Shown one piece after another: positions 6,650 through 36,250 of a stretch of DNA of 36,824 nucleotides. How positions within the stretch are numbered: position 1 is the first letter of the stretch; each line of letters starts with the position of its first letter. The notes under the pieces are model-generated. The model did no database searches and was not told the origin of the DNA. It was given only the letters and a program-made list of their open reading frames with translations. This DNA comes from a plasmid: the sequence record NZ_CP124639.1; one strand, given 5' to 3'. The position numbers were made by a program, and so were the translations under genes.

Positions 6650-7347
6650 TAGTTGCGAACGGGCCAAGAGAATTGGCGGACGTAGAGGCCAACCGGGTTG
6701 GCCATAAGCTGGGCTTCATCCTTCGGCGCAGCGATCAGGACGTTGGCCGTGAGCTGATAGCTTTGGGTGCCGATCAGCTTGCCGGAAGTGCGGTTTTTCA
6801 CCGTTTCCGTCCACTCGACTTGCCAAGTGTCTTTCGAGAGCTGGACAGGCGTTTGCATGGCCACCTCGACGGTTTCATTGGCGGCCCGCTGATACGGGTT
6901 GTGCTCCCGGTGATACGTGGCCAGCGTCTGATACGCGGCGCTGTCGGGCAGCGTCATCGCATAGGTCGCATCGACGACGCGCTTGGTTGCCCGGTTGTCC
7001 GCGTACACCGTGCGAGCACCAAGAACCCAATCTTGCAGCGCAGCGCGGATTTGTTCGGTCTTCGGCCCCGGCGTGGCCTGATCGGCCCGCCAGATTTCGC
7101 GGCTTTTGCCGTTGGCGTCGGTGTTGACGTAGTAGACCGCGATTTTCTCTTTGGAAGCCTGAATGACATTCCCGGCCGCCGAGAGAATCAGCGCGACACC
7201 AACGACAAACGCGGCCGTCCGCCAGTTGCGGGCGTCGATGATATGACTGCCATAACGCTCGTTCCACTCGCGGCGGGCTGCGAGGTAAGGCGTGCCGGGC
7301 GGGGCTTTCGGTGCCCGCTGACCCTTTTTCTTGCTATTGGGTTGCAT
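6649..7347 (-). CDS. trbF: Conjugal transfer protein TrbF (VirB8 family)
   Basis: N-terminus …YLAARREWNERYGS, a single TM segment, and the VirB8-like periplasmic domain typical of TrbF. Confidence 0.85.
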   Translation of the reverse strand: MQPNSKKKGQRAPKAPPGTPYLAARREWNERYGSHIIDARNWRTAAFVVGVALILSAAGNVIQASKEKIAVYYVNTDANGKSREIWRADQATPGPKTEQIRAALQDWVLGARTVYADNRATKRVVDATYAMTLPDSAAYQTLATYHREHNPYQRAANETVEVAMQTPVQLSKDTWQVEWTETVKNRTSGKLIGTQSYQLTANVLIAAPKDEAQLMANPVGLYVRQFSWPVRN

Positions 7348-7364
7348 AAGTACGTCCGTCCATT

Positions 7365-7384
7365 TGATAGTCTGTAGACTATAT
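7365..7384. promoter_or_regulatory. Operator copy (TGATAG-TCTGTAGA-CTATAT) 18 bp upstream of the trbF start codon
   Basis: Same 22-bp palindrome family as 350..371 and 14804..14825. It follows a hairpin at 7401..7432. Confidence 0.5.
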
Positions 7385-7400
7385 TATTGGCCAAAGTAAC

Positions 7401-7432
7401 CCCTCCTAGCAAGCACTAGGAGAGGCTTTTTT
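7401..7432 (-). terminator. Hairpin CCTCTCCTAG-N6-CTAGGAGG between the 101-aa ORF and trbF; possible attenuator or partial terminator
   Basis: 7-bp stem CTCCTAG/CTAGGAG with a T-run on the top strand and a weak U-tract (UUACUUU) on the minus-strand transcript. Confidence 0.3.
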
Positions 7433-7436
7433 CGGG

Positions 7437-7742
7437 TTAGTCCCGGCGATTGTTGCGTTGATGCTTCGACAGTTCTTCGAGGTCGTCCCACATGTCGCGG
7501 CTGCGACGGTTGCCGAACAGGGGAACCCTGCTCAGTCCGCGCCCTACGCTGACCATTGCGCCGCTCAGAGGGCGGAACAGCCAGCGCGTTTTTCGCTGGG
7601 CGGTGGACACTTTCGCGTCGATTTTGTCGAGCTGGTCACTGTAGCCTTTACGGCGCAACCACTGCCCTAACGCCCATAGTCCAAGGCCTATCAAAAACAT
7701 GGCCAGCAAGGGCAGGAAGAACAAGGCGAGTTCGGCGATCAT
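7437..7742 (-). CDS. Small membrane protein (101 aa) inserted between trbL and trbF
   Basis: N-terminal TM (LALFFLPLLAMFLIGLGLWALG) followed by a basic tail. Its ATG lies 3 nt after the trbL stop. It is not part of the canonical trb set. Confidence 0.55.
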   Translation of the reverse strand: MIAELALFFLPLLAMFLIGLGLWALGQWLRRKGYSDQLDKIDAKVSTAQRKTRWLFRPLSGAMVSVGRGLSRVPLFGNRRSRDMWDDLEELSKHQRNNRRD

Positions 7743-9458: not shown

Positions 9459-9461
9459 AGC

Positions 9462-9665
9462 TCAGTACCCCTTATCGCGGCCAGTGTTGACCGGATCAAC
9501 ATGGCGTAGGGTGTTTTTGCCCGGAGCCGGAGCCGGTGCCGGTTCGCAAGCGACCGGCTTCGGCTCAGGGGAAAACACGTTGAGAACGATGCTCGAACCG
9601 ACACCGCCGACGACTGCGGCGGCGATCAGGGAGGCTACGAACACCGACAGTTTGAGATTGAGCAT
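9462..9665 (-). CDS. trbK: TrbK-like small membrane protein (candidate entry exclusion), 67 aa
   Basis: Sits between trbJ and trbL as in Ti-type trb operons. N-terminal TM and Pro-rich tail. TAAATG junction with the trbJ stop. Confidence 0.45.
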   Translation of the reverse strand: MLNLKLSVFVASLIAAAVVGGVGSSIVLNVFSPEPKPVACEPAPAPAPGKNTLRHVDPVNTGRDKGY

Positions 9666-15342: not shown

Positions 15343-16584
15343 ATGAACGGACCTAAGCCAATCAGTGACATTGTGGGGGGCAATCTGCTGGCCAGACTAG
15401 AGCAGACGCACCAGAGGTATCGCGAAAAAGTGGAGGCCGCAGCCCTGCCCGGCGAGACGTTCGAGCAAGCCGAGAAGCGCCTACGCGAAGAAGGCGAACG
15501 CGAACAGAGGCGGAAAAGTAACGAGGTCGCCCAGCAACAAGCCGAGGCAACTTTGGCCGCACAGTTGCGCGATAGAAGCCCTATCCCGCGAAGCCCAATC
15601 CCTAACACATCGTCCCCCAGTGGACAGACCAAACGGAGCAATTCGGCCTCAATGCGTCGCCCTCCCGAGAGCGACCGACAGCCCGACTTTTTCGTGCCGG
15701 GTCTGTACGACGTAGCCACCAAGGACAACCGTAGCCTGATGGACGTTGCGCTGTTCCGCCTGTCAAAGCGCGACAAGCGAGCAGGCGAAGTGATCCGCTA
15801 CGACCTGCCGGACGGCTTCGTTGAAGTGAAGGCCGGGCCGGATGGCATGGCGTCGATATGGGACTACGACATTGTGCTGATGCTCATCTCACACCTAACC
15901 GAGTCGATGAATCTTTTCAATGCCGGGCGCGGTGCCATGCCGGGCAAGAAATTCGTCCCGCACGCCTCAGATATTGCCAAGTTCTGCCGCCGTGGCGACG
16001 GCGGGCGTCAGGTTGACCAGTTGGAAGCTGCGCTTGACCGTCTGCTGGGAACGACCATCAAGAGCGTGCGCGAGACACCATCACGCAACGGCAAGCGCGT
16101 CGTGCGCGAGACAGAAGCGGAAAGTCTCATTGGCCCCTACCGCGTCGTGTCCCGCACCGACACCGGCAAGGTGGCCAGTGTCGAGATTGAGGCACCAAAC
16201 TGGATTTACCGGGAAGTGACCGGAGGCAGGCAGCCGGACGTGCTGACCGTTCACCCGGACTACTTCCTGATCGAGCCGGGCCTTGGCCGGTTCGTCTACC
16301 GTCTCGCTCGCCGTGCTGCTGGCAAGAACACGGCCAAGTGGGCGTTCAAGACTATCTACGAGCGCAGCGGCAGCACGGGCACATTCAAAGAGTTCTGCCG
16401 CATGATGCGCCGCCTGATCGACGCCAACGACCTGCCCGAGTATGAATTGCGCGAGGAAGACGGCCAGAGCGGCCCGCTGCTACTCATCACGCGCCGTACC
16501 GACGCGGTGGAGCTGGCCGCCGAGGACGAACCCGATGCAGACGGCGACGAGCAGGAGAACGGCGAGAATGCGCCCGGTGTGTAA
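15343..16584 (+). CDS. repA: Plasmid replication initiator (iteron-binding Rep, TrfA/RepA-like)
   Basis: 413-aa ORF with an AAAAAGGAG RBS, immediately followed by iterons; its TAA stop lies inside the first iteron. Confidence 0.7.
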   Translation: MNGPKPISDIVGGNLLARLEQTHQRYREKVEAAALPGETFEQAEKRLREEGEREQRRKSNEVAQQQAEATLAAQLRDRSPIPRSPIPNTSSPSGQTKRSNSASMRRPPESDRQPDFFVPGLYDVATKDNRSLMDVALFRLSKRDKRAGEVIRYDLPDGFVEVKAGPDGMASIWDYDIVLMLISHLTESMNLFNAGRGAMPGKKFVPHASDIAKFCRRGDGGRQVDQLEAALDRLLGTTIKSVRETPSRNGKRVVRETEAESLIGPYRVVSRTDTGKVASVEIEAPNWIYREVTGGRQPDVLTVHPDYFLIEPGLGRFVYRLARRAAGKNTAKWAFKTIYERSGSTGTFKEFCRMMRRLIDANDLPEYELREEDGQSGPLLLITRRTDAVELAAEDEPDADGDEQENGENAPGV

Positions 16585-16770
16585 TAGACGGAGAGTTGCC
16601 CGGAGAGCCGCGCCGGGCCTCACTTTTATAGTCTGCGGTGTGTAATAGACGGAGGCAAAACCCGAAATGTGGATAAGTCTGTGGATGGCCCGTCTATTAC
16701 CCACCCGGTTCCGTCCATTACCCACCGCGACCCGTCTTTTACCCACCGGATTCCGTCTATTACCCACTCA
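16575..16770. repeat. oriV iterons: 2 direct copies GTGTGTAATAGACGG (16578, 16638) and 4 inverted copies CCGTCTATTACCCAC (16690, 16711, 16732, 16754) at 21-22 bp spacing
   Basis: Read directly. The regular 21-22 bp phasing is typical of Rep-binding iterons. Confidence 0.75.
16598..16630 (+). terminator. Hairpin GCCCGG-N9-CCGGGC followed by a TTTT-run after rep
   Basis: Read directly; placed between the two direct iterons. Confidence 0.35.
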
Positions 16771-16789
16771 TCCACAGGGCTAAGTCCTT

Positions 16790-16920
16790 GTCCTGTAAGG
16801 GAAAAATGACGATTTCCAGACCCTAAAACTTCTTTTAAAACATTAAATCTAAAAAAAAACGCTCTATCGAGCGGAAAAGCACTATCAAATTGATCTAACT
16901 GAAAAGAAGAAAGCGGAACC
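16790..16920. promoter_or_regulatory. AT-rich region (candidate DNA unwinding element of oriV)
   Basis: A-tracts (AAAAAAAAA) and about 65% AT set in a 63%-GC replicon, next to the iterons. Confidence 0.5.
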
Positions 16921-16985
16921 AATCGCATAGAATCGCGTACAGTCGCATTAAATCGCTTAGATTCGCGCAGAATCGCACTACAGCG
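16921..16985. repeat. Six tandem 10-bp repeats (A-ATCGC-NNNN), perfect 10-bp phase; left arm of a 47-bp perfect inverted repeat with 21229..21275
   Basis: TCGC at 16923, 16933, 16943, 16953, 16963 and 16973. Reverse complement of 16921-16967 equals 21229-21275 exactly. Confidence 0.8.
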
Positions 16986-17080
16986 CCCGGTTTGGACGCA
17001 TGTAGCGGCTGGAAGACAGGTTTAGACACCAAAAGGAAGGGCGAACGAGCCGTAGCGCCCAGCTCGACCACACCGGCCGA

Positions 17081-17524
17081 TCATTTCCCCTTTGGTGCCC
17101 CCTCCCCTTGATCCTTGGGATCAGCCGGATCGACCGCCTTGCCCTTTCTGACCGCCTTGGGCTTCGCGTGACCAGCCTTGCGCAAGGCTTTGCCGACCTC
17201 CCCCATGCCGTGCCAGATCGCGGCCGCCTGTTCAGGGCGCAGCTCCTGCCCTTCCCTGATGGCCTTGGACAGCGTGACCAGCCACCGATCCGCAGACATG
17301 GCCGTGTAGGCCTCCTGCGACTTCTGCGAGGCTTCCCGGCGCTTGGCCAGCCATTCGGCCAGCGTCTCGCGTTCGGCCTCTGTCAGCTCATCCAGCCCGG
17401 TCGTGGGCATTTCCGTCGTATAGCGGGCCAGTGTGGCAATGACCGTCTGCCGACCCCGGCCAATGGCCTTGTCGTACACGGTGCGGATGCACTGAATTTT
17501 GCGGCCCTGTTCACGTATCTGCAT
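17081..17524 (-). CDS. Hypothetical protein (147 aa) with a Lys-rich C-terminal tail; candidate autoregulated DNA-binding protein
   Basis: GGGGG RBS before the ATG at 17524. The palindrome TGCGGATAA-ATGG-TTATCCGCA lies 20-40 bp upstream. Confidence 0.55.
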   Translation of the reverse strand: MQIREQGRKIQCIRTVYDKAIGRGRQTVIATLARYTTEMPTTGLDELTEAERETLAEWLAKRREASQKSQEAYTAMSADRWLVTLSKAIREGQELRPEQAAAIWHGMGEVGKALRKAGHAKPKAVRKGKAVDPADPKDQGEGAPKGK

Positions 17525-17544
17525 GGTAGCCCCCTTTCCGTATG

Positions 17545-17910
17545 GTGCGGATAAATGGTTATCCGCAGTAATGATAGCACACTATCCGCAGGCGGATAAA
17601 AAATAAACATCACATTTCAGATAGAAACCTATCCGCATACAGCTATCATAGCAGCAGCATATGCCGATAATCGCACTATCTGCACATGCAGACGCTGCGC
17701 TATCCGCATACCGATGAAAAACTATCACGCTACATCATGTTAGATTTTCATCCGCATGCGGACGATTTATTATCCATTGTGCGGATACTTTCTTATCGGT
17801 ATGCCGGATAATCAGCTATCCGTATAGGCTTGCGCCCGGGCGCAGGCGGAAGATGCACCAAAGCAGATAACCGCCCGGTTAATATGCGGATAGAAAATTA
17901 TCCGAAATTG
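17545..17910. promoter_or_regulatory. AT-rich array of at least 9 TATCCGCA motifs, mostly arranged as inverted pairs (DnaA-box-like or operator array)
   Basis: 17545-17566 TGCGGATAA-N4-TTATCCGCA. 17582-17597 TATCCGC-AG-GCGGATA. Also 17628-17638, 17698-17710, 17751-17762 TCCGCATGCGGA, 17769-17786, 17814-17825 and 17884-17905. Confidence 0.55.
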
Positions 17911-17923
17911 TGACGGTTGCCTC

Positions 17924-17959
17924 TTGACAGGTTATCGTTTATAAACGACAATATCAGAC
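17924..17959 (+). promoter_or_regulatory. higB promoter: TTGACA -35 hexamer, 12-bp perfect palindrome CGTTTATAAACG over the -10 region
   Basis: Read directly. A palindrome overlapping the promoter is typical of toxin-antitoxin autoregulation. Confidence 0.45.
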
Positions 17960-18286
17960 ATGCAGCAGATACGGCACTACCTCGACCCCAACGGACGCGA
18001 CCACTTCGCCGAGTGGCGCGATCAGGTGCGCGATACCAAAGCGCGAATCGCCATCGACCGGCGCATCATGCGCTTGGAACTTGGCAACTTCGGCGATCAC
18101 AAGCCCCTGCGTGAAGGCGTGTGGGAGCTGCGCATCGACGTAGGGCCGGGCTACCGCGTTTATTACGCCAAGGCTGGCTTGACCGTCGTGCTGCTGCTCT
18201 GCGGCGGCGACAAGCGCAAGCAGAACGCCGACATTGACCGGGCCTGCGCCTATTGGCGTGACTGGCAGCAACGGACAGGAGATTGA
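17960..18286 (+). CDS. higB: Type II toxin, RelE/ParE superfamily (HigB-like addiction module killer)
   Basis: 108 aa; the sequence pattern …VWELRIDVGPGYRVYYAKAG…VVLLLCGGDKRKQNADIDRA matches HigB-type toxins. It is upstream of an HTH antitoxin with a 3-nt gap. Confidence 0.75.
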   Translation: MQQIRHYLDPNGRDHFAEWRDQVRDTKARIAIDRRIMRLELGNFGDHKPLREGVWELRIDVGPGYRVYYAKAGLTVVLLLCGGDKRKQNADIDRACAYWRDWQQRTGD

Positions 18287-28031: not shown

Positions 28032-31000
28032 ATGAAAAAGGAATACGCCGAGGAAGTCGCGGCGCGGATCATAGAGCAGTTGGAGCAGGGCACCGCGCCG
28101 TGGCAAAAGCCGTGGCAGCCCGGCGAGCTGCGCTTGCCGTACAACCCGACCACCGGCAAGGAATACCGTGGCATGAACAGCCTTTGGCTGCACATGCAGG
28201 GCCACAGTGATCCGCGCTGGATGACCTACAACCAAGCCGCCGCCGAAGGCGCACAGGTGCGCAAGGGTTCCAAGGGAACCCATATCGTCTACTGGAAGTT
28301 CAGCGAGGAACGAAAGGCCACCGACGAGCAGGGCCGCCCGGTCATTGACCCGGACACCGGCAAGCAAAAGACCGTGACCGTGCAGCTCGAACGGCCGCGC
28401 TCATTCATGGCCGTGGTGTTCAACGGCTCGCAGATCGACGGCTTGCCGCCGCTGGAAGCGCGACCCACCGGGCCGGAGCCGGAGCGTCACGCCCGCGCCG
28501 AGGCCATCTTGGCCAATTCGGGCGCGGTCATTCGCCACGAACCCGGCGACCGGGCTTTTTACCGTCCCAGCACGGACAGCATCACACTGCCCGAGCGTAA
28601 CCAGTTCCCGACCGCCGACAACTACTACGCCACCGCGCTGCATGAGCTGGGCCACTGGACGGGGCACCCGTCGCGGCTTGACCGCGACCTTGCGCACCCG
28701 TTCGGTTCCGAGGGCTACGCCCGCGAAGAATTGCGAGCGGAAATTGCCTCGCTCATGTTGGGCGAACGCCTCGATATCGGCCACGATCCGGGCCAACACG
28801 CAGCCTATGTCGGTTCGTGGGTTAAAGCCTTGAAGGAAGATCCAAAAGAGATCTTCCGGGCCGCGTCCGACGCCGAACGCATCAGCGGCTACGTGATGGA
28901 TTTCGAGCGTGAGCAGGAGCTATCGCAGGCAGTTGAGGCCGATCTTGGCCCGCGCTGGACTGTAGAACACCGCGACACATTTGCGGCCAATCCCGAGCAG
29001 GTCGTGATCGGCGAAACCAATAGCGCAGTCGAGGCGCTGGCCCTATTCCGAAGCAGGCCAGACACAACCGTGACCGATAACAGAACGGAAACGGTTGAAG
29101 GGCGCACCTCTTGGGTTAGAGACGGTTCCGCGCCGGAGTGGTCGCCGTCGCCCAAGCTGGTCGCTATGGCCAACATGGAAGAACGGGGCGTCCCGCTTCC
29201 GCGTCAGCGCCCCGGTATATCCGCTGCCGACCATCGACTTGCCGAAACGCTGCTGCTCGCCGCCAATCATCCAGAGCCGGGGAGCCACAGCCAACAGTCG
29301 TTGATGAAAGCCGCCGCAGACGCAACCGCCGAGGCCTTCGGGGAGCCGCTGGCAGGCATACGCGCCGGAAAACTGCCGGAGCAATGGAATGGGACGGCGC
29401 GAGCGGTTCCAGTCACACAACGGGGCAGCTATGAGGCAGGCGACGAGGAATATGTACCCGTCGAACAAGGGCAACAGACTCATTGGTTTGTCGAGACTCA
29501 GGACACAGCCGGTAACTGGCATTGGTTCGCTAATGACTTCACGGAGGAAGCCACTACAGCGAAGCGTCTTAATACCATTGGCGAAGTCGCCGGGCTGTCA
29601 GCCGGGCAGGCCGACGCGCAGCAAGGTGTACCGGAACAGCAGGCCTACACCGTGCAGAGCCGCCGTGTCGTGCCGGAGAACGCCGCCAATCATGCAGGCC
29701 AAAACGCCGTCTATGTGCAGCTCGATGACGGCCGCAGGGCTTGGGGATTCGGCGCGACCGACGAAGCCGCCGAGCAATCCGCCGTAGAACGTGCGCAGCG
29801 CGTCGGCCTCGATGCCGACCGGGCACCGACCCGCACAGTTCTGCATGAGCAACCGGAGAAGCCTATGCAATCGCGCACCTATCTGGCCGTGCCCTATGCC
29901 GAAAAGAACGAGGCGAAGGCGCTGGGAGCCAAGTGGGATAAGGAAGCAAAATCATGGTACGCGCCCGAGGGCGTGGACGTAACCACATCGGGCCTTGCCC
30001 GGTGGAGCGTGGACAAGTCCAACGTCGTCACCGCGTCGGAACCCAAGCCCGCCATCGAGCAGTTCAAGGACGCATTGAAGGATGCGGGCTTGCAGCTCAA
30101 GGGTGAGGTCATCACGGACGGGAAGATGCAGCGGGTGCCCGTCGAGGGCGACCGGGGCGGTGCCACCAGTGGCGCATACGCCTACCACGAAGCCGGGCGC
30201 ACGCCGGGCGGTTTCATCCAGAACTACAAGACCGGCGAAGTCGTACATTGGAAGCCCGAAGGCAAGACGCCGGAACTCAGCGCCTCCGACCGTGCCCGGC
30301 AGGCCGCCGAGGCGGCCGAACAGCGCAAGGCACGCGATGCGGCCCGCCTGTCCGAGCACGGCGCGACCGCCGCCGCCGCGCAAGCGTTGTGGAACGAGGC
30401 CCCGGCCGCGACCGCTGACAATGCCTATTGCAAAGCCAAAGGCATCGCCAACCCGGTAGGCCTGCGCGTCGTGCCGGACAGCGTTTCGCCGGAGACTGCT
30501 GCGCACGGGATCAAGATCGCCAAGACAGCCAAGGAAGCCAAGGCGCTGCGCGAGGCTGACCCGGCCAACCGGGTTTTCAAAGCGGGCGACCTGCTGATAC
30601 CTGGCACAGACGGCGAGGGGAAATTGTGGACGCTGCAAAGCGTCAATCCCTACTTCAAATCGTTCATGAAGGGCGGCCGGAAAGCGGGCCTCTACACCGT
30701 TGCCGGTGCTGACGATCCGCGCAAGGCGCTGGCCCAAGACGGCGATTCCCCTTTGGTGCTCGCCGAAGGCTACGCCACAGCCGACACGGTTTCGCGTCTG
30801 CTGGGCGGTAAGCCGGTCATCGTGGCATTCGACAGCGGCAATCTCGACGCGGTGGCCACCGAGCTGCGCGAGCGTCACCCGTCGCGGCCGTTGCTGATCG
30901 CCGCCGACAATGACCACAACGCGCCGAAGGAGCTGGACGCCAACGGCAAGCCCAAGGTCAACGTCGGACTGGTGAAGGCCACAGAAACCGCCGAGAAGCA

Positions 31001-31643
31001 CGGCGGCGGCGTCATGGCCCCGCAGTTCAACGACGGCGAGAAGGGTTCCGACTGGAACGACCTCGCCGGGAGCCGGGGCGACGAAGCTGCCCGCCGGATG
31101 CTCGCCGAGCAAATGGCGGTAGCCAAGCGTGATGCCGCCATAACTGCCGAACGGCTGACCACCCTTGCGCGTACCCGCGACATGGAAGCCCGCAACGACC
31201 CGACGACGAGCGCCGACGATGCGGCCGTAGCAACAGAGCGCGGGCACGCGGCCGAAGTATTGGCCGGTGCGCAATCCGCGCTCAGTGAGGTGCGCAGCAT
31301 GGCCGCCGATGGCGTGACCGGCAACACCAAAGGGGCAACCCGTTCGGCTGCTGCCGTCAAAGCCGGGATCGACCGGAAGACCGAGGCGATGCACGACCGC
31401 GCCAAAGAGGAACGCGAGGAAGTGCTGAACCACGGCCAGACCGGCCCGCTCGATGGCGTCAACGCTGGCGTGTCGTGGAAAAAGCTACCCGAGCAAGCCA
31501 AACAGGCGCTCATCGAGGACGTGAAGAACGGCAAGGACGTGACCTTGCCGAAGGACGCCCCGGCCAAGCTCAAACAGATGGCAGGCCTTGAACCGACCCC
31601 CGCGCCGCGCTCGCGCAGCCGTGGGATTGATGCAGGCCTTTGA
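28032..31643 (+). CDS. traC: TraC1-like conjugative primase: N-terminal ArdC-like ssDNA-binding/zincin metalloprotease domain fused to a Toprim primase domain (1203 aa)
   Basis: ArdC N-terminal domain (…QGTAPWQKPWQ…). HExxH in ALHELGHWTGH. Central motif VPYAEKNEAKALGAKWDKEAKSWYAP. Toprim domain (VLAEGYATADT…LLIAADNDHN…GSDWNDL). Confidence 0.8.
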   Translation: MKKEYAEEVAARIIEQLEQGTAPWQKPWQPGELRLPYNPTTGKEYRGMNSLWLHMQGHSDPRWMTYNQAAAEGAQVRKGSKGTHIVYWKFSEERKATDEQGRPVIDPDTGKQKTVTVQLERPRSFMAVVFNGSQIDGLPPLEARPTGPEPERHARAEAILANSGAVIRHEPGDRAFYRPSTDSITLPERNQFPTADNYYATALHELGHWTGHPSRLDRDLAHPFGSEGYAREELRAEIASLMLGERLDIGHDPGQHAAYVGSWVKALKEDPKEIFRAASDAERISGYVMDFEREQELSQAVEADLGPRWTVEHRDTFAANPEQVVIGETNSAVEALALFRSRPDTTVTDNRTETVEGRTSWVRDGSAPEWSPSPKLVAMANMEERGVPLPRQRPGISAADHRLAETLLLAANHPEPGSHSQQSLMKAAADATAEAFGEPLAGIRAGKLPEQWNGTARAVPVTQRGSYEAGDEEYVPVEQGQQTHWFVETQDTAGNWHWFANDFTEEATTAKRLNTIGEVAGLSAGQADAQQGVPEQQAYTVQSRRVVPENAANHAGQNAVYVQLDDGRRAWGFGATDEAAEQSAVERAQRVGLDADRAPTRTVLHEQPEKPMQSRTYLAVPYAEKNEAKALGAKWDKEAKSWYAPEGVDVTTSGLARWSVDKSNVVTASEPKPAIEQFKDALKDAGLQLKGEVITDGKMQRVPVEGDRGGATSGAYAYHEAGRTPGGFIQNYKTGEVVHWKPEGKTPELSASDRARQAAEAAEQRKARDAARLSEHGATAAAAQALWNEAPAATADNAYCKAKGIANPVGLRVVPDSVSPETAAHGIKIAKTAKEAKALREADPANRVFKAGDLLIPGTDGEGKLWTLQSVNPYFKSFMKGGRKAGLYTVAGADDPRKALAQDGDSPLVLAEGYATADTVSRLLGGKPVIVAFDSGNLDAVATELRERHPSRPLLIAADNDHNAPKELDANGKPKVNVGLVKATETAEKHGGGVMAPQFNDGEKGSDWNDLAGSRGDEAARRMLAEQMAVAKRDAAITAERLTTLARTRDMEARNDPTTSADDAAVATERGHAAEVLAGAQSALSEVRSMAADGVTGNTKGATRSAAAVKAGIDRKTEAMHDRAKEEREEVLNHGQTGPLDGVNAGVSWKKLPEQAKQALIEDVKNGKDVTLPKDAPAKLKQMAGLEPTPAPRSRSRGIDAGL

Positions 31644-31700
31644 CAAGAGACGGCGGCCGGGCGCTGTCCGGCCGCTCAAGACTGAATAGGAGTACAACCA

Positions 31701-33728
31701 ATGACGACATTGGTAATCGTGGAATCCGTCAAGAAGGTAGAGAAGATCGGGCCAATGCTGGGCAACGGCTACAAAGTCATGGCGAGCGTCGGCCACGTCC
31801 GCGACCTGCCGCAGAAAGAGATCGGCATCGAGCTGCCATCGTATGCGCTGACCTACGAGCCTACCGACCGAGGCAAAAGCATCGTGGCCAAACTCAGGGC
31901 CGCAGCCGCCGAGTCCGACCGCGTTATCTTGGCCACCGACCCCGACCGGGAAGGTGAGGCCATCGCGTGGCATCTGGCGGAAATGCTGCGCCTCAAGAAC
32001 CCGGAGCGGGTGACGTTCACCGCTATCACGAAAGACAAAATTCTTGCGGCCTTCGCGTCACCCCGGCCGCTGGACATGCAGCGCGTCTACGCGCAGGAGG
32101 CCCGCCGGGCGCTCGACCGCATGATTGGCTATCGCGTCAGTCCTGCACTGTCGGATGCCACCGGGCAACGTCTTGGCGCTGGCCGGGTACAGTCTGCGGG
32201 CGTCCGCCTTGTGGTGGAGCGCGAGCGGGCTATTGCTGCCTTCAAATCGACCCAGCACTACGGGGCCGAGCTGGTCTTTAACAACGACGACGCGACGAGC
32301 TGGAAAGCGCAATGGGACACGAAACCGCACTTGGCGGATGGTGAAACGTACCTGCTCGATGCCGAGCTGGCCAAGCAGGCCGCAGCAGTCCGAAACGTAG
32401 TCGTCACCGACTACGAGGACAGCGAGAAGGGCAAGGCCCCGGCCGCGCCGTTCACGACCTCGACCATGCAGCTTGCCGCCGGTCAGCGACTGAAATTCAA
32501 GCCCAAGCGCACGATGGAACTGGCGCAAAAGCTGTACGAGCAAGGGGCGATCACCTATCACCGCACCGACTCCCCGAACATGGACGAGGAAGGTATTGCC
32601 GACATTGCCGCTTACGCTGCCGGTGCTGGTCTGCCAATGGCCGACAAGCCGCGAAAATGGAAGGCCAAAGACAACGCGCAAGAAGGGCACGAAGCCATCC
32701 GCCCGACACACGTTGCTGATTTGGATTGCGGCGAAGACGACGACGAAAAGGCCCTGTATCGCCTCATCTGGCAACGTGCCGTCGCCTCCCAGCTCGCCGA
32801 TGCCATGTACGCTGTCCGCACCGTTCGGCTCGCTGGCGATGCCGCAGGCACGCCCGTTTCGTTTAAGGCAACCGGGCGCACCCTGTTGTCGCCCGGCTGG
32901 CAGGCCGTCTACGCGGAAGACGCGAAGGACGAGAACGACGAACCGGACGAAGAAAGCAACAACCCGATTCCGGCCCTCGCGGTAGACGCCGCACTGGTAG
33001 CTGATGATGGCCGCGTGCTGACCAAGAAGACCAAGCCGCCGGTTCGCTTCAAGCAACCGACCCTTGTAATGGAAATGGAGCGGCTGGGGATCGGGCGACC
33101 GAGCACCTACGCGGCGATCATGGAGAACATCACCGCCCGCGAGTACATCATTGCGGACAAAAAAGAGTACCTGTCGCCTACGCCGGTCGGCGAACTTGTC
33201 TGCGATGGTTTGGTGGATCGCTTCCGCTTTATCGACCTCGACTACACCCGAGGCCTTGAGGAACAACTCGACCAGATCGCGGAAGGCAAGACCGACTACC
33301 TCAGCGTCGTCTCGGCGGCTTGGGCCGCACTCGATGACGAGCTGGGCAAGCTGGACTCGGCCGACCTGCCCGTGGCGCACCCGTGCCCGACGTGCAGCAA
33401 GCCGCTGCGCCGGATCAAGGGCCAACACGGGTTCTTTTGGGCCTGCTCAGACCGGGAATGCAAGACCACCTTGCCGGATGCCAAAGGCAAGCCCGGCGAG
33501 CGCAAGGCTCCACCACCGCCGACCGGCATTGCGTGCCCGAAATGCGGTAAGGAGCTGGCCCACCGCGTCGGTACGAGCAAGCCGGTCAAGCGTGGGATGA
33601 AGCCCCGTCCGTATGACTTCTATAGCTGCACCGGCTTCCCGAAATGCGATGCGAAGTACAACACCGGGCCGGATGGCAAGCCAGTGTTCGGCGATGACGC
33701 GAAACCTGCGCAGGAGGTTGAGGCATGA
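31701..33728 (+). CDS. topB: Type IA DNA topoisomerase (topoisomerase III, TraE-like)
   Basis: Toprim N-terminus MTTLVIVESVKK…ATDPDREGEAIAWH. Catalytic region …ITYHRTDS…. C-terminal zinc ribbons CPTCSK…CSDREC and CPKCGK…CTGFPKC. Confidence 0.9.
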   Translation: MTTLVIVESVKKVEKIGPMLGNGYKVMASVGHVRDLPQKEIGIELPSYALTYEPTDRGKSIVAKLRAAAAESDRVILATDPDREGEAIAWHLAEMLRLKNPERVTFTAITKDKILAAFASPRPLDMQRVYAQEARRALDRMIGYRVSPALSDATGQRLGAGRVQSAGVRLVVERERAIAAFKSTQHYGAELVFNNDDATSWKAQWDTKPHLADGETYLLDAELAKQAAAVRNVVVTDYEDSEKGKAPAAPFTTSTMQLAAGQRLKFKPKRTMELAQKLYEQGAITYHRTDSPNMDEEGIADIAAYAAGAGLPMADKPRKWKAKDNAQEGHEAIRPTHVADLDCGEDDDEKALYRLIWQRAVASQLADAMYAVRTVRLAGDAAGTPVSFKATGRTLLSPGWQAVYAEDAKDENDEPDEESNNPIPALAVDAALVADDGRVLTKKTKPPVRFKQPTLVMEMERLGIGRPSTYAAIMENITAREYIIADKKEYLSPTPVGELVCDGLVDRFRFIDLDYTRGLEEQLDQIAEGKTDYLSVVSAAWAALDDELGKLDSADLPVAHPCPTCSKPLRRIKGQHGFFWACSDRECKTTLPDAKGKPGERKAPPPPTGIACPKCGKELAHRVGTSKPVKRGMKPRPYDFYSCTGFPKCDAKYNTGPDGKPVFGDDAKPAQEVEA

Positions 33729-33967
33729 CGCTGTTCAGCGAGTACACCGACGCCGAGCTGGCCGCGTTGCCCGACACCATCGAGCCGCTGACCATGCTCG
33801 AACTGCGTTCCGTTCTGCTGGCCCTTGACGGCGATAGCTTTCCGCCGCGCTCGATGTACACCAAGGGCTTGGTTAGCGCGACCGAGAAGATGGAGCGGAT
33901 GCTTGACGAAGTGCGGGCCAGACTGGTGCGCGAGCGTTACCACAGACCGGCCCCGGTCGGGGACTAA
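33725..33967 (+). CDS. Hypothetical small protein (80 aa), translationally coupled to topB (ATGA)
   Basis: Start overlaps the topB stop; acidic helical composition. Confidence 0.5.
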   Translation: MTLFSEYTDAELAALPDTIEPLTMLELRSVLLALDGDSFPPRSMYTKGLVSATEKMERMLDEVRARLVRERYHRPAPVGD

Positions 33968-34036
33968 GACCCGGCAACACAAACCAAACAGGGGCCACGC
34001 CGCAAGGCTGGCCCTTTTTCTACGGAGGATCGACCG

Positions 34037-34744
34037 ATGTTCGAGAAACTGCGCCTCAACCGCGCATGGCGTGCCGAGCTGCGCGAGCTTGACCAGAAGA
34101 AGGCCCCGGCCCATCTGCCCAAGCCCGACGACAGCAGCCCCGGCCGCCTCCTTTGGTGTCTGCCGGTGCCCGGCAAACCTGATGTTTTCATGGCTCTGGA
34201 AAAGGGCGAGCACGCCGATCACGACAGGTTCGTGGTGCCTGTCAACGCCGTGGCGTTCAACCGGCTATGGCTGGCCGGGGGCCTCAATTCGCGGGAGCGG
34301 CCGGACGGGTGTCTGCTACGCCGGGACATGCCCGCCGATAGCAAATATCGTCACGCGGCCGCCTGCTTTGCCGAGGGGCGGCTGTCGCCCGTGCCGCTGG
34401 CCAGCGTCTCGCTGGAACGCGGGCGGGACGGCACACAATCGGTCAGCTTCGGCGACGGTGTGACGCGCACGTTTTGGCTGCTGGCCAACAACGTCGCGGC
34501 GTTTCCCGTCCTGATCGCAGGCGAGGCCGCCGCCAAGCAGCTCGCCCAGCTCGCCGGGACGGACGGCAGCACCTTGCGCGTGTCCGAGGCTTTCCGACAG
34601 GTCGAAAAGGCCCCGGCCAGCCCACAGAAGCCGGTCAGCACCAAAAAGGAAGGGGTAGGGCAGGTGCAGGCGAACAATGCGCCTCAGCGGGCCGCACAGG
34701 GCCACAGGAGGCCGTCCCGAGGTGGCGGCATAGGTATCGACTGA
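34037..34744 (+). CDS. Hypothetical protein (235 aa)
   Basis: Complete ORF followed by a strong terminator; no motif recognised. Possibly a plasmid fertility-inhibition-type accessory protein, but this is unverified. Confidence 0.55.
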   Translation: MFEKLRLNRAWRAELRELDQKKAPAHLPKPDDSSPGRLLWCLPVPGKPDVFMALEKGEHADHDRFVVPVNAVAFNRLWLAGGLNSRERPDGCLLRRDMPADSKYRHAAACFAEGRLSPVPLASVSLERGRDGTQSVSFGDGVTRTFWLLANNVAAFPVLIAGEAAAKQLAQLAGTDGSTLRVSEAFRQVEKAPASPQKPVSTKKEGVGQVQANNAPQRAAQGHRRPSRGGGIGID

Positions 34745-34753
34745 CCAGACAGC

Positions 34754-34778
34754 AAAAAGCCCCATACGGGGCTTTTTT
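34754..34778. terminator. Bidirectional rho-independent terminator AAAAAGCCCC-ATAC-GGGGCTTTTTT
   Basis: Perfect 6-bp GC stem flanked by an A5 tract and a T6 tract. Separates the convergent 235-aa gene and the lower-GC cassette. Confidence 0.8.
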
Positions 34779-34800
34779 GCGGGCTGCTCATGGTCACGTT

Positions 34801-35007
34801 TTACCGGGGGAGTTGAGCGAAAATTGCAGGCAGCTCATCAAAGCTACACTCTCGGAGGTCGTAAATGATATTTCTATCGTGGATCACTTCCCGTAGTTGT
34901 CTCTCTGCATTTTCCATCGACGTGGCCGTTAAAAAGTAAACGCTGTTCATAGTGATGTCATATCGGTATTTGCCAGCTAGGCGGTATTGATAAAGTTTGT
35001 ACTCCAT
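34801..35007 (-). CDS. Small protein (68 aa), second gene of the lower-GC two-gene cassette
   Basis: The ATG at 35007 lies 5 nt after the stop of the upstream membrane-protein gene and carries a GAGG RBS. Sequence MEYKLYQYRLAGKYRYDITMNSVYFLTATSMENAERQLREVIHDRNIIYDLRECSFDELPAIFAQLPR. The 119-aa ORF-track version would overlap the upstream gene. Confidence 0.5.
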   Translation of the reverse strand: MEYKLYQYRLAGKYRYDITMNSVYFLTATSMENAERQLREVIHDRNIIYDLRECSFDELPAIFAQLPR

Positions 35008-35011
35008 CGCC

Positions 35012-35467
35012 TCAAACCTCACCGTTGTCACGTTTGGGGCGGACTTGCTTGCTGATGAATTTGTATTTTTGGCCTTGTGATGGCATTGGCCGACTGTAAC
35101 TAAGGGCATGGCGTTCTCTGTCCAACCAGTGGAATACCTCGCCAAGATCGAGCCTGCCAAGTGAACGGGTCACGTCTTGCAGTTCTGCATAGGCCTCCAC
35201 GTCTACCGGATCATAGGCCGTCAATTGGTTATCCAGTGTCTCAGCCCACGACTTCGATAGCGGCGCGAACTGGTAGACCGCGATACCCACGGCCGCCCCG
35301 ATCAGGAACGTTATATAAACTCCCCAATTGCCCGCAATGAACGCCGTTGCGATGACCACGAGAACACCACTCAAAGCGGCAGAAGCGCGAGGCGATAGTG
35401 ATGGTTGTTCCATCCGGTAGAGCGAATATTTGATGTTGTTAAGCTGTTTCCAATGTTGTTTGCTCAC
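35012..35467 (-). CDS. Membrane protein (151 aa; two TM helices plus a cytoplasmic C-terminal domain), first gene of the lower-GC cassette
   Basis: TM pair SGVLVVIATAFIAGNWGVYITFLIGAAVGIAVYQFA. Region GC about 50% versus about 63% for the backbone. Start codon is GTG per the ORF track. Confidence 0.55.
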   Translation of the reverse strand: MSKQHWKQLNNIKYSLYRMEQPSLSPRASAALSGVLVVIATAFIAGNWGVYITFLIGAAVGIAVYQFAPLSKSWAETLDNQLTAYDPVDVEAYAELQDVTRSLGRLDLGEVFHWLDRERHALSYSRPMPSQGQKYKFISKQVRPKRDNGEV

Positions 35468-35527
35468 ATCTGCTACCTCATAGCTGATTAATAGTCCCGA
35501 GGCGGGTAGATAGGGCCGTCCTCTTTG

Positions 35528-36250
35528 TCAGTTGATGGCCAGCTCGAACGGCGCAGCGTTGCAATCGTCATTGCCGCACAGCAGCTTGAGGCCCGGCTTT
35601 CCCCACGCCTGCGCACCGCAGCAGGGGCAGCGGTACTTATCCCGGTTCGATTTGTTCCCGGCCGGGGCGAGCTGGATCAGGCCCTCGTTGTCGTCGCCGT
35701 CGTCGGCGTCACCGAAGATCGCCGCGATTTCGGTTCCTGCTGGCGGGTGCCTGTCGAACCATGTAATGCGGAAATCGGTCTTTAGCAGCGCCTCAGTGGC
35801 TTGCATGAAGGGGCCGCCGTCAATCGCATAGTCGGCCATCTTCTCGCCCGTTTTCTTCCCGCCGGGCTTGCCGGTATCGGAAGGCATCAGGCCGATGGAT
35901 TCCATTTTGTCGGCCCACTCTTTGTTGTGGTAGCCGCGTCGGCCCGGCTCGCCGAAATGGAACTGCCAAGCGTGCGCCATTTCGTGAACCAGAGTTTGCA
36001 ATATTTCGAGCAGCGGCACGACACCAAAATAGGATGGATTCATGGCGATTTCGTCGGTCATGGTCTTTTCGTGCCGGTTGGCGAACCGGCGCGACGAGAA
36101 ATAGCCATAGGTGCGCTTTTCGCGCTGCATCGTGATGAGACAGTGCGGGAGCTGGCCATCGAACAGAGCGGCGTTGTAGTGCTCAAACGCTGCCTGTAGC
36201 TCGCCATAGGCCTGAATCGTCGGGCTGGCCGTGGATTTAAGAGCTTTCAC
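35528..36250 (-). CDS. SprT-like zinc metalloprotease domain protein with a C-terminal zinc ribbon
   Basis: HEMAHAWQ (HExxH) and a CPCCG…CGNDDC ribbon. Likely GTG start at 36250 after a GGAAGGGGG RBS; the ORF-track N-terminal extension to 36397 is Cys/Arg-rich junk. Confidence 0.7.
   Translation of the reverse strand: MKALKSTASPTIQAYGELQAAFEHYNAALFDGQLPHCLITMQREKRTYGYFSSRRFANRHEKTMTDEIAMNPSYFGVVPLLEILQTLVHEMAHAWQFHFGEPGRRGYHNKEWADKMESIGLMPSDTGKPGGKKTGEKMADYAIDGGPFMQATEALLKTDFRITWFDRHPPAGTEIAAIFGDADDGDDNEGLIQLAPAGNKSNRDKYRCPCCGAQAWGKPGLKLLCGNDDCNAAPFELAIN

Follow-up and report, generated by a model that had tools for sequence, protein, structure and literature searches.

A two-gene stretch of a pSN1216-29-type plasmid probably consists of separately acquired, nested single-gene cassettes

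Do two small genes that stand 4 nt apart at the end of a plasmid operon form one functional module, or are they separate acquisitions? The question is raised by positions 34779-35509 of sequence record NZ_CP124639.1, within an analysed window of 36,824 bp that is a whole circular plasmid, cut open within its thermonuclease gene (the minus strand encodes residues 1-114 at 344-3 and residues 116-235 at 36823-36464). The stretch lies between a predicted bidirectional terminator and an sprT-like gene, and encodes gene A (35012-35467, minus strand; 151 amino acids (aa), GTG start with GAGGT 7 nt upstream), a predicted inner-membrane protein, and gene B (34801-35007, minus strand; 68 aa, ATG start), predicted to be soluble. 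The original prediction described a horizontally acquired two-gene insert, with the genes 5 nt apart, and a candidate defence-type module; the two linked minus-strand genes were found as described, with a spacer of 4 nt. Comparison with other plasmids supported a foreign, accessory and variable stretch but divided the one insert into two, with B nested inside the 3′ end of A. It is highly probable that A and B are two separately acquired and separately dispensable single-gene cassettes, nested at the 3′ end of the nuc-orf76-sprT operon. The full explanation, in which these independent cassettes also have the roles proposed below, is given a probability of roughly 55%.

The stretch varies among plasmids that are otherwise 92-99.8% identical, and within the family of pSN1216-29 four states were seen: both genes together, A alone (the commonest), B alone, or no copy of either. 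Plasmids with A only (pEC743_4, pMH0621-12 and others) lack 34816-35026, corresponding to gene B. B only was found in metagenome contig OIER01000353 (L037), where a 97% identical gene B directly follows the sprT stop and 35031-35523 is absent. The junction in this contig falls in TTGTCA, a motif that the window carries twice (35025-35030 and 35525-35530); this is consistent with loss of A by microhomology deletion in an ancestor with both genes. Neither gene is present in pSN1216-29, where the terminator is intact, nor in pK1118-2, whose flanks are 99.6-99.8% identical to the window and whose junction (CCCCATA / GGGCCG) cuts off half of the terminator. Since this junction differs from that of pSN1216-29, the deletion in pK1118-2 can be considered independent, and pK1118-2 was rejected as an ancestral empty site because its junction deletes half of the terminator. 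Taken together, the junction sequences fit the loss of gene A at least twice through microhomology deletion. IS26 interrupts gene B in two plasmids in which gene A is left in place; in one, an E. coli contig (L028, 1-288), the insertion element lies at window position 34952, and in the other, NZ_CP093551.1 (H11/H32), the region is split into two places.

Outside the pSN1216-29 family, B was never found beside A in any plasmid record examined. In Salmonella IncFII-type plasmids, B follows sprT-parA-orf77 and is convergent with a nuclease gene, with A absent. These distributions bear directly on the proposal that A and B act as one functional module for toxin-antitoxin activity, abortive infection or exclusion, made up of a membrane effector and a small partner. 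Known two-gene toxin-antitoxin and abortive-infection modules resemble the stretch in being tightly linked small genes, one of them for a membrane protein, in a low-GC (guanine plus cytosine) block on a plasmid; here, a small membrane protein and a small soluble protein are encoded on one strand, and the genes are probably co-transcribed. However, A and B are not co-inherited. Both single-gene states exist, which a toxin-antitoxin or effector-partner pair could not tolerate, and all four states occur in a single plasmid family. The pair was not found in other replicons outside one narrow lineage; tblastn searches returned 39 plasmid records with A and six with B, and the only other lineage with B lacks A. 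IS26 knock-outs of B retain A, and, as described below, the insertion of B into the 3′ end of A duplicated its target. No matches to PADLOC, Pfam, NCBIfam, or to toxin or antitoxin families were obtained for either gene, and the neighbourhood is plasmid backbone rather than a defence island, leaving a defence-type module without support. It is therefore very improbable that A and B form one module.

The nesting of B within A was evident from the junctions. In plasmids without B (pEC743_4 and pMH0621-12), the end of gene A (...KRDGN/D, stop; TCACCGTCACGCTTT) abuts the terminator. In the window, 15 bp matching the gene A end (CTCATGGTCACGTTT; 34787-34801, minus strand) still abut the terminator, as a remnant duplicate of the last codons of A that marks the left edge of the B cassette, and a second, slightly different copy (CTCACCGTTGTCACGTTT; 35018-35035, minus strand) forms the present functional 3′ end of A. 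DNA similarity to the Salmonella plasmid compared is restricted to 34823-35020, and the Shine-Dalgarno regions are alike (GAGGTTTGAGGCGATG in the window and GAGGTTGAAACGATG for the Salmonella homologue). Together with the Shine-Dalgarno region that it carries (GGTGAGGTTTGAGGCG, reaching to about 35023), gene B makes up a cassette of about 220 bp within the end of gene A; no attC-like or IS-like features were found at this cassette. These alignments show that gene B was inserted later than A, into the last codons of A, with duplication of about 15 bp of A. A single insertion event was rejected because gene B is bounded by separate junctions within A. An imperfect 21-nt direct repeat (16/21; GTCCCGAGGTGGCGGCATAGG and GTCCCGAGGCGGGTAGATAGG) flanks the whole insert, with one copy in the 3′ end of fiwA (34714-34734) and one just upstream of gene A (35494-35514); this repeat may be due to chance.

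The compositional break on which a foreign origin had been proposed was confirmed by sliding-window analysis and by the GC content of third codon positions (GC3). The GC content of 34779-35509 is 50.8%, compared with 61.5% for the whole plasmid; only 0.3% of 731-bp windows have a GC content this low, and the plasmid minimum (0.502) starts at 34771. The GC3 values of gene A (0.58) and gene B (0.51) compare with 0.76-0.84 for sprT, fiwA, topA, pri and orf80. The low GC3 of gene A suggests that the allele in the window came from a lower-GC lineage by recombination. Other low-GC spots were seen at about 16500-17000 (0.52) and 17500-18000 (0.47), beside the repA gene and a toxin-antitoxin pair; the AT-rich oriV region known from pSN1216-29 probably falls within them.

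The boundaries of the stretch agreed with those originally described. On one side, a predicted bidirectional intrinsic terminator (34754-34778, both strands) consists of a perfect 10-bp inverted repeat (AAAAAGCCCC / GGGGCTTTTT) with a U-run on either strand. The predicted RNA fold is -21.3 kcal/mol on the plus strand and -21.2 kcal/mol on the minus strand (z about -3.5, with 0 of 200 shuffles as stable); a simple terminator scan did not list this site. The terminator closes both the relaxase-primase-topA-fiwA operon on the plus strand and the nuc-orf76-sprT-A-B operon on the minus strand. The convergent neighbour fiwA (34037-34744, plus strand) encodes a fertility-inhibition factor with a PFIN domain (Pfam PF22162, E 5.4e-23). 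On the other side, upstream of A in the same operon, is the gene for a SprT-like zinc metalloprotease (35528-36250, minus strand; Pfam SprT-like, E 8.9e-14), whose annotated start in related records (pSRRSH1521) gives a protein of 240 aa. A 60-bp spacer separates the sprT stop from the gene A start (35468-35527, minus strand) and contains the ribosome-binding site of gene A. The empty sites of pK1118-2 and pSN1216-29 have their right edges in this spacer, where the TTGTCA copy at 35525-35530 also lies. As no promoter-like or terminator-like site was found by the scan between sprT and the terminator, including in the 60-bp spacer, the simplest reading is that A and B are the last genes of the nuc-orf76-sprT operon and are co-transcribed with it. 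An Rfam search returned nothing in 34500-35700.

Gene A was also found at this position in more diverged plasmids. In p20-20P3, which belongs to a different replicon cluster and has flanks about 77-80% identical, a 39% identical relative of gene A follows sprT and faces fiwA, and a Pantoea contig (L013) has a 40-43% identical relative in the same sprT/fiwA arrangement. Gene A is thus a long resident at this site, after sprT and facing fiwA, in diverged backbones. Other sequences were found between sprT and A in several of these plasmids, including ardR in R16a (order sprT-ardR-A; ardR at 4660-4905 of L007), an extra 105-aa open reading frame (ORF) in pMH0621-12 (L004, 2163-2480), and about 560 bp of unannotated sequence in p20-20P3 (L006, 4349-4913). 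By these comparisons, the sprT-fiwA interval is a hot spot of single-gene insertion and deletion, with gene A as its most persistent occupant.

An exhaustive profile search of 1.84 billion representative proteins identified 190 clusters of gene A relatives at E ≤ 1e-3, nearly all of 130-180 aa; a word-indexed protein search returned few relatives, and a genome-contig scan returned 3 loci. Close relatives share 70-99% identity. A coherent alignment of 76 family members was used for AlphaFold2 prediction and profile comparisons, and the resulting model of gene A (mean predicted local distance difference test score (pLDDT) of 90.6) consists of a helix at residues 2-20, two transmembrane helices (26-45 and 47-67) that form a hairpin whose turn is one to four residues long, and a C-terminal domain of three helices (74-84, 90-103 and 108-125) followed by an extended tail with the conserved F137. 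This agrees with the earlier description of a protein with a basic N-terminus, two transmembrane helices and a cytoplasmic domain; the N-terminal segment contains five K/R residues (net charge +4), two hydrophobic helices were placed at about 28-46 and 49-68 with a very short turn between them, and the C-terminal part is 80 aa long. Given the five K/R residues at the N-terminus and the near absence of a periplasmic loop, the positive-inside rule predicts an inner-membrane anchor for the gene A protein, with its N- and C-termini on the cytoplasmic side.

Positions conserved in the family are L9, I12 and P26, followed by W74, D79, L82, Y85-x-P87, Y93, L96, W114, E118 and F137. The window protein has every one of them, including the PR motif, and profile scores for relatives range from 60 to 159 bits. 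Among close relatives, only 3% of compared positions differ in the C-terminal domain, with residues 69-73 invariant, and 21-22% differ in the hairpin and tail, indels included. The ratio of nonsynonymous to synonymous substitution rates (dN/dS) is 0.5-0.9 in close comparisons and 0.27-0.41 in distant ones; the high values at close range can be attributed to the variable hairpin and tail, the C-terminal domain being nearly constant. This suggests that the hairpin serves as an anchor and that the working part is the cytoplasmic module. The original statement that neither protein belongs to a recognisable family was upheld, as gene A and gene B had zero matches in Pfam, NCBIfam, PADLOC and PHROGs. 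The 76 gene A relatives gave nothing above chance against the family libraries (the lone PADLOC match was a chance-level HerA), the gene A family profile found nothing among PDB sequences, no solved structure matching gene A or gene B was found, and a literature search by protein accession found nothing. The gene A family is uncurated, with no Pfam or NCBIfam model.

All gene A family contexts seen were plasmids or conjugative-element-like contigs. The plasmid records identified by tblastn were mostly typed as conjugative or mobilizable (34/39), and zero copies were found in the collections of phages (tblastn) or E. coli chromosomes searched. Relatives with 60-69 bits against the gene A family profile lie between traB and traV in five F-type Enterobacterales plasmids (pENT-812c, pENTAS01, p.Jk2_1, pJZ29-02 and pPAT9B05), and gene A also matched six similar Phytobacter plasmids. 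The closest observed association of the family with a secretion system is in the F-type operon of a MOBH (TraI_2) element (L044): here a relative (7001-7534) with a reciprocal match to the window family is placed between traK and traB, and its end overlaps the traB start by 4 bases. A further relative directly follows the coupling-protein gene in pYSCONJ, another occurs in the order korA-A-repA, and in the IncP-1-like plasmid pAV3334-2 a 113-aa relative lies between korC and kleA (L035, 3884-4225) and matches gene A over query residues 72-142 only, in its C-terminal half.

A conserved membrane-anchored cytoplasmic module, restriction to conjugative elements, repeated adjacency to traB and dispensability together fit a role as a conjugation accessory. 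Gene A is considered dispensable because pSN1216-29, which lacks it, transfers itself (PMC6232296). Under this proposal, gene A would be a non-essential adaptor at the inner membrane face that binds TraB/VirB10, the coupling protein or an ATPase, and such binding would stabilise or tune transfer, much as has been proposed for F TraP, to which gene A is not homologous. F TraP (PF07296; pilus-stabilising) is likewise a small, non-essential inner-membrane protein, and the traB-traV slot of the F plasmid, which holds traP, trbD and trbG, is filled by gene A relatives, immediately downstream of traB, in at least five F-type operons without an annotated traP there. The hydrophobic-segment layout of TraP differs, however, and the window copy of gene A lies outside the transfer operon. 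Homology to TraP was rejected, as hhalign comparison of the 76-member profile with F TraP gave a probability of 0.1 and none of the 76 members matched PF07296; the resemblance is positional only.

Several further observations, like the lack of TraP homology, weigh against a conjugation role. The traB-traV position is true of distant relatives only, as gene A in the window follows sprT, and in its own plasmid family it is unlinked to type IV secretion genes and sits in the nuclease/SprT operon. The traB-traV slot is itself variable and also hosts rfaH-like and other small genes. Other relatives follow korA, korC or ardR, or lie beside dnaB or a BglII-like endonuclease gene, indicating that the family is not tied to one machine. 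A conserved partner gene was sought and rejected, since neighbours of the relatives (287, 247, 228 and 215 aa, and convergent genes of 232 and 235 aa) showed no similarity to SprT or FiwA; because no neighbour is conserved across contexts, gene A probably works as a single gene. The suggestion, drawn from context and the predicted structure, that gene A serves conjugation as a dispensable accessory anchored in the membrane is tentative.

The same features raise the alternative that gene A is an entry-exclusion protein, blocking redundant transfer from the inner membrane of the recipient. F TraS and the Eex proteins of SXT/R391 are, like gene A, of about 150 aa, located in the inner membrane (predicted for gene A), carried by conjugative elements, dispensable and fast-evolving; gene A diverges quickly among close relatives, with changes mainly in the hairpin and tail, and some of its relatives lie within tra operons. 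Unlike TraS and Eex, which lie beside traG, gene A was not adjacent to traG or virB6 among mating-pair genes, no relative was seen beside traG, and no homology or family match was detected among its relatives. The specificity determinants of SXT/R391 Eex-type proteins are cytoplasmic, as reportedly found by Marrero and Waldor, and would be expected to vary, whereas the cytoplasmic domain of gene A is its most conserved part and is invariant among close relatives. In addition, in this plasmid family the usual eex positions of VirB-type operons already contain small ORFs, of 67 aa between virB5 and virB6 and of 101 aa between virB6 and virB8. Entry exclusion is accordingly judged unlikely, and the conjugation accessory is preferred. 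In the window, the 101-aa ORF lies at 7437-7742 on the minus strand between virB8 and virB6 and has no Pfam match, and the 67-aa ORF of pSN1216-29 corresponds to a gap near 9460-9665.

Gene B is predicted to fold as beta-beta-alpha-beta-alpha and to be soluble, in line with the earlier description of the 68-aa partner. It is rare, with three clusters in an index of 5.8 billion proteins and two metagenome loci in addition to the six plasmid records, and tblastn against phages gave no match. The homologue in Salmonella IncFII-type plasmids encodes a 59-60% identical protein, and the dN/dS of 0.07 across this 40% protein divergence indicates strong constraint on the gene B protein. With hundreds of homologues for A and the conserved Salmonella homologue for B, both genes are real. 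The idea that A and B are neutral, hitch-hiking DNA with no plasmid function would account for their frequent loss and for their absence from the self-transmissible prototype; it is made very doubtful by the constraint on B, by the lower dN/dS of A in distant comparisons and the invariance of its C-terminal domain, and by the retention of the position of A across backbones only about 77-80% identical in DNA.

The best guess for gene B, made from its predicted fold and operon position, is a small soluble binding protein or inhibitor-type protein, co-transcribed with sprT and A. It resembles small inhibitor proteins of phages or plasmids (T7 Gp2, the YkzG/epsilon fold, and the anti-CRISPR proteins AcrIE2 and AcrIF9) in being a single domain of about 60-85 aa encoded by a stand-alone mobile-element gene, and the order of elements in T7 Gp2 is beta-beta-alpha-beta and then a helix, the same as in the gene B model. 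A further alternative is that A, B or both are establishment or anti-defence factors. Expressed alongside the genes for the nuclease and the SprT-like protein, they would ease the entry of the plasmid into a new host, for example by inhibiting restriction, CRISPR or another host defence. A and B each close operons with an SprT-like gene, in two unrelated plasmid backbones; R16a carries ardR between sprT and A; and gene A relatives adjoin klcA-klcB-korC or lie near Antirestrict and ArdcN genes. However, the structural matches of the gene B model are weak and at the level of generic folds, with ribosomal eL20/LX and PaaB scoring higher than the inhibitor candidates, which also counts against an inhibitor-type role for B in the preferred explanation. 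A membrane hairpin is unusual among known anti-restriction proteins, no family match was found, and the region would lie outside the first-entering segment, judging from the IncP-type layout (oriT between traJ and traK; PMC6232296). An establishment or anti-defence function is given a fairly low probability.

The backbone places these cassettes in a well-described plasmid family. pSN1216-29, the prototype of broad-host-range self-transmissible MOBP/VirB-type plasmids, was first captured from cow manure and was shown to replicate and to pass itself on to Proteobacteria of several classes (Yanagiya et al. 2018, PMC6232296); the relatives named in the same paper (pEC743_4, pKPN-704, pJHX613 and pSRC119-A/C) are all of clinical-isolate origin. 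Megablast alignment of the window with pSN1216-29 (AP018710) was collinear at 90-98% identity over the full length, except for three indels at 28909-29642 (inside the primase gene), 33705-33988 (the orf80 region) and 34786-35501 (the stretch studied here). The two plasmids share repA, the MOBP relaxase, VirB-type secretion and transfer genes, topA, fiwA, sprT and nuc, which places the window plasmid in this family; it differs from the prototype, which lacks them, in having gene A, gene B, orf80 and the primase-gene indel. The nearest database record is pSRRSH1521 from Pseudomonas aeruginosa, with 99.9% identity across the region.

Two other segments of the backbone differed from pSN1216-29. 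The 3′ part of the primase gene together with topA (29643-33704) is only 90% identical to pSN1216-29, compared with 98% elsewhere, and this alignment suggests a recombinant segment. An 80-aa ORF (33725-33967, plus strand) that overlaps the topA stop by 4 bases is a small variable cargo gene; it is present in several relatives and has no Pfam match, and pSN1216-29 has no alignable sequence for 33705-33988.

A broader interpretation, a speculative one that is slightly less probable than the accessory role of gene A taken by itself, is that gene A represents a new and widespread class of inner-membrane accessories of conjugative type IV secretion and that gene B is, separately, a new inhibitor of a host function. 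Gene A would then be a membrane-anchored cytoplasmic four-helix module docking on TraB/VirB10 or the coupling protein, which might replace TraP in many F-type operons and act as a free-standing tuning gene on IncP-like plasmids.

With these results a false lead falls away, since the stretch does not encode a new defence or toxin module. There remains a family of small membrane proteins of about 190 clusters, seen only on conjugative plasmids, uncurated and recurrent beside traB, which merits a curated model. The sprT-fiwA interval offers a clear example of a hot spot at which single genes are inserted, and deleted by microhomology. Should the gene A family modulate transfer or host range, it would matter for the spread of broad-host-range plasmids found in clinical isolates.

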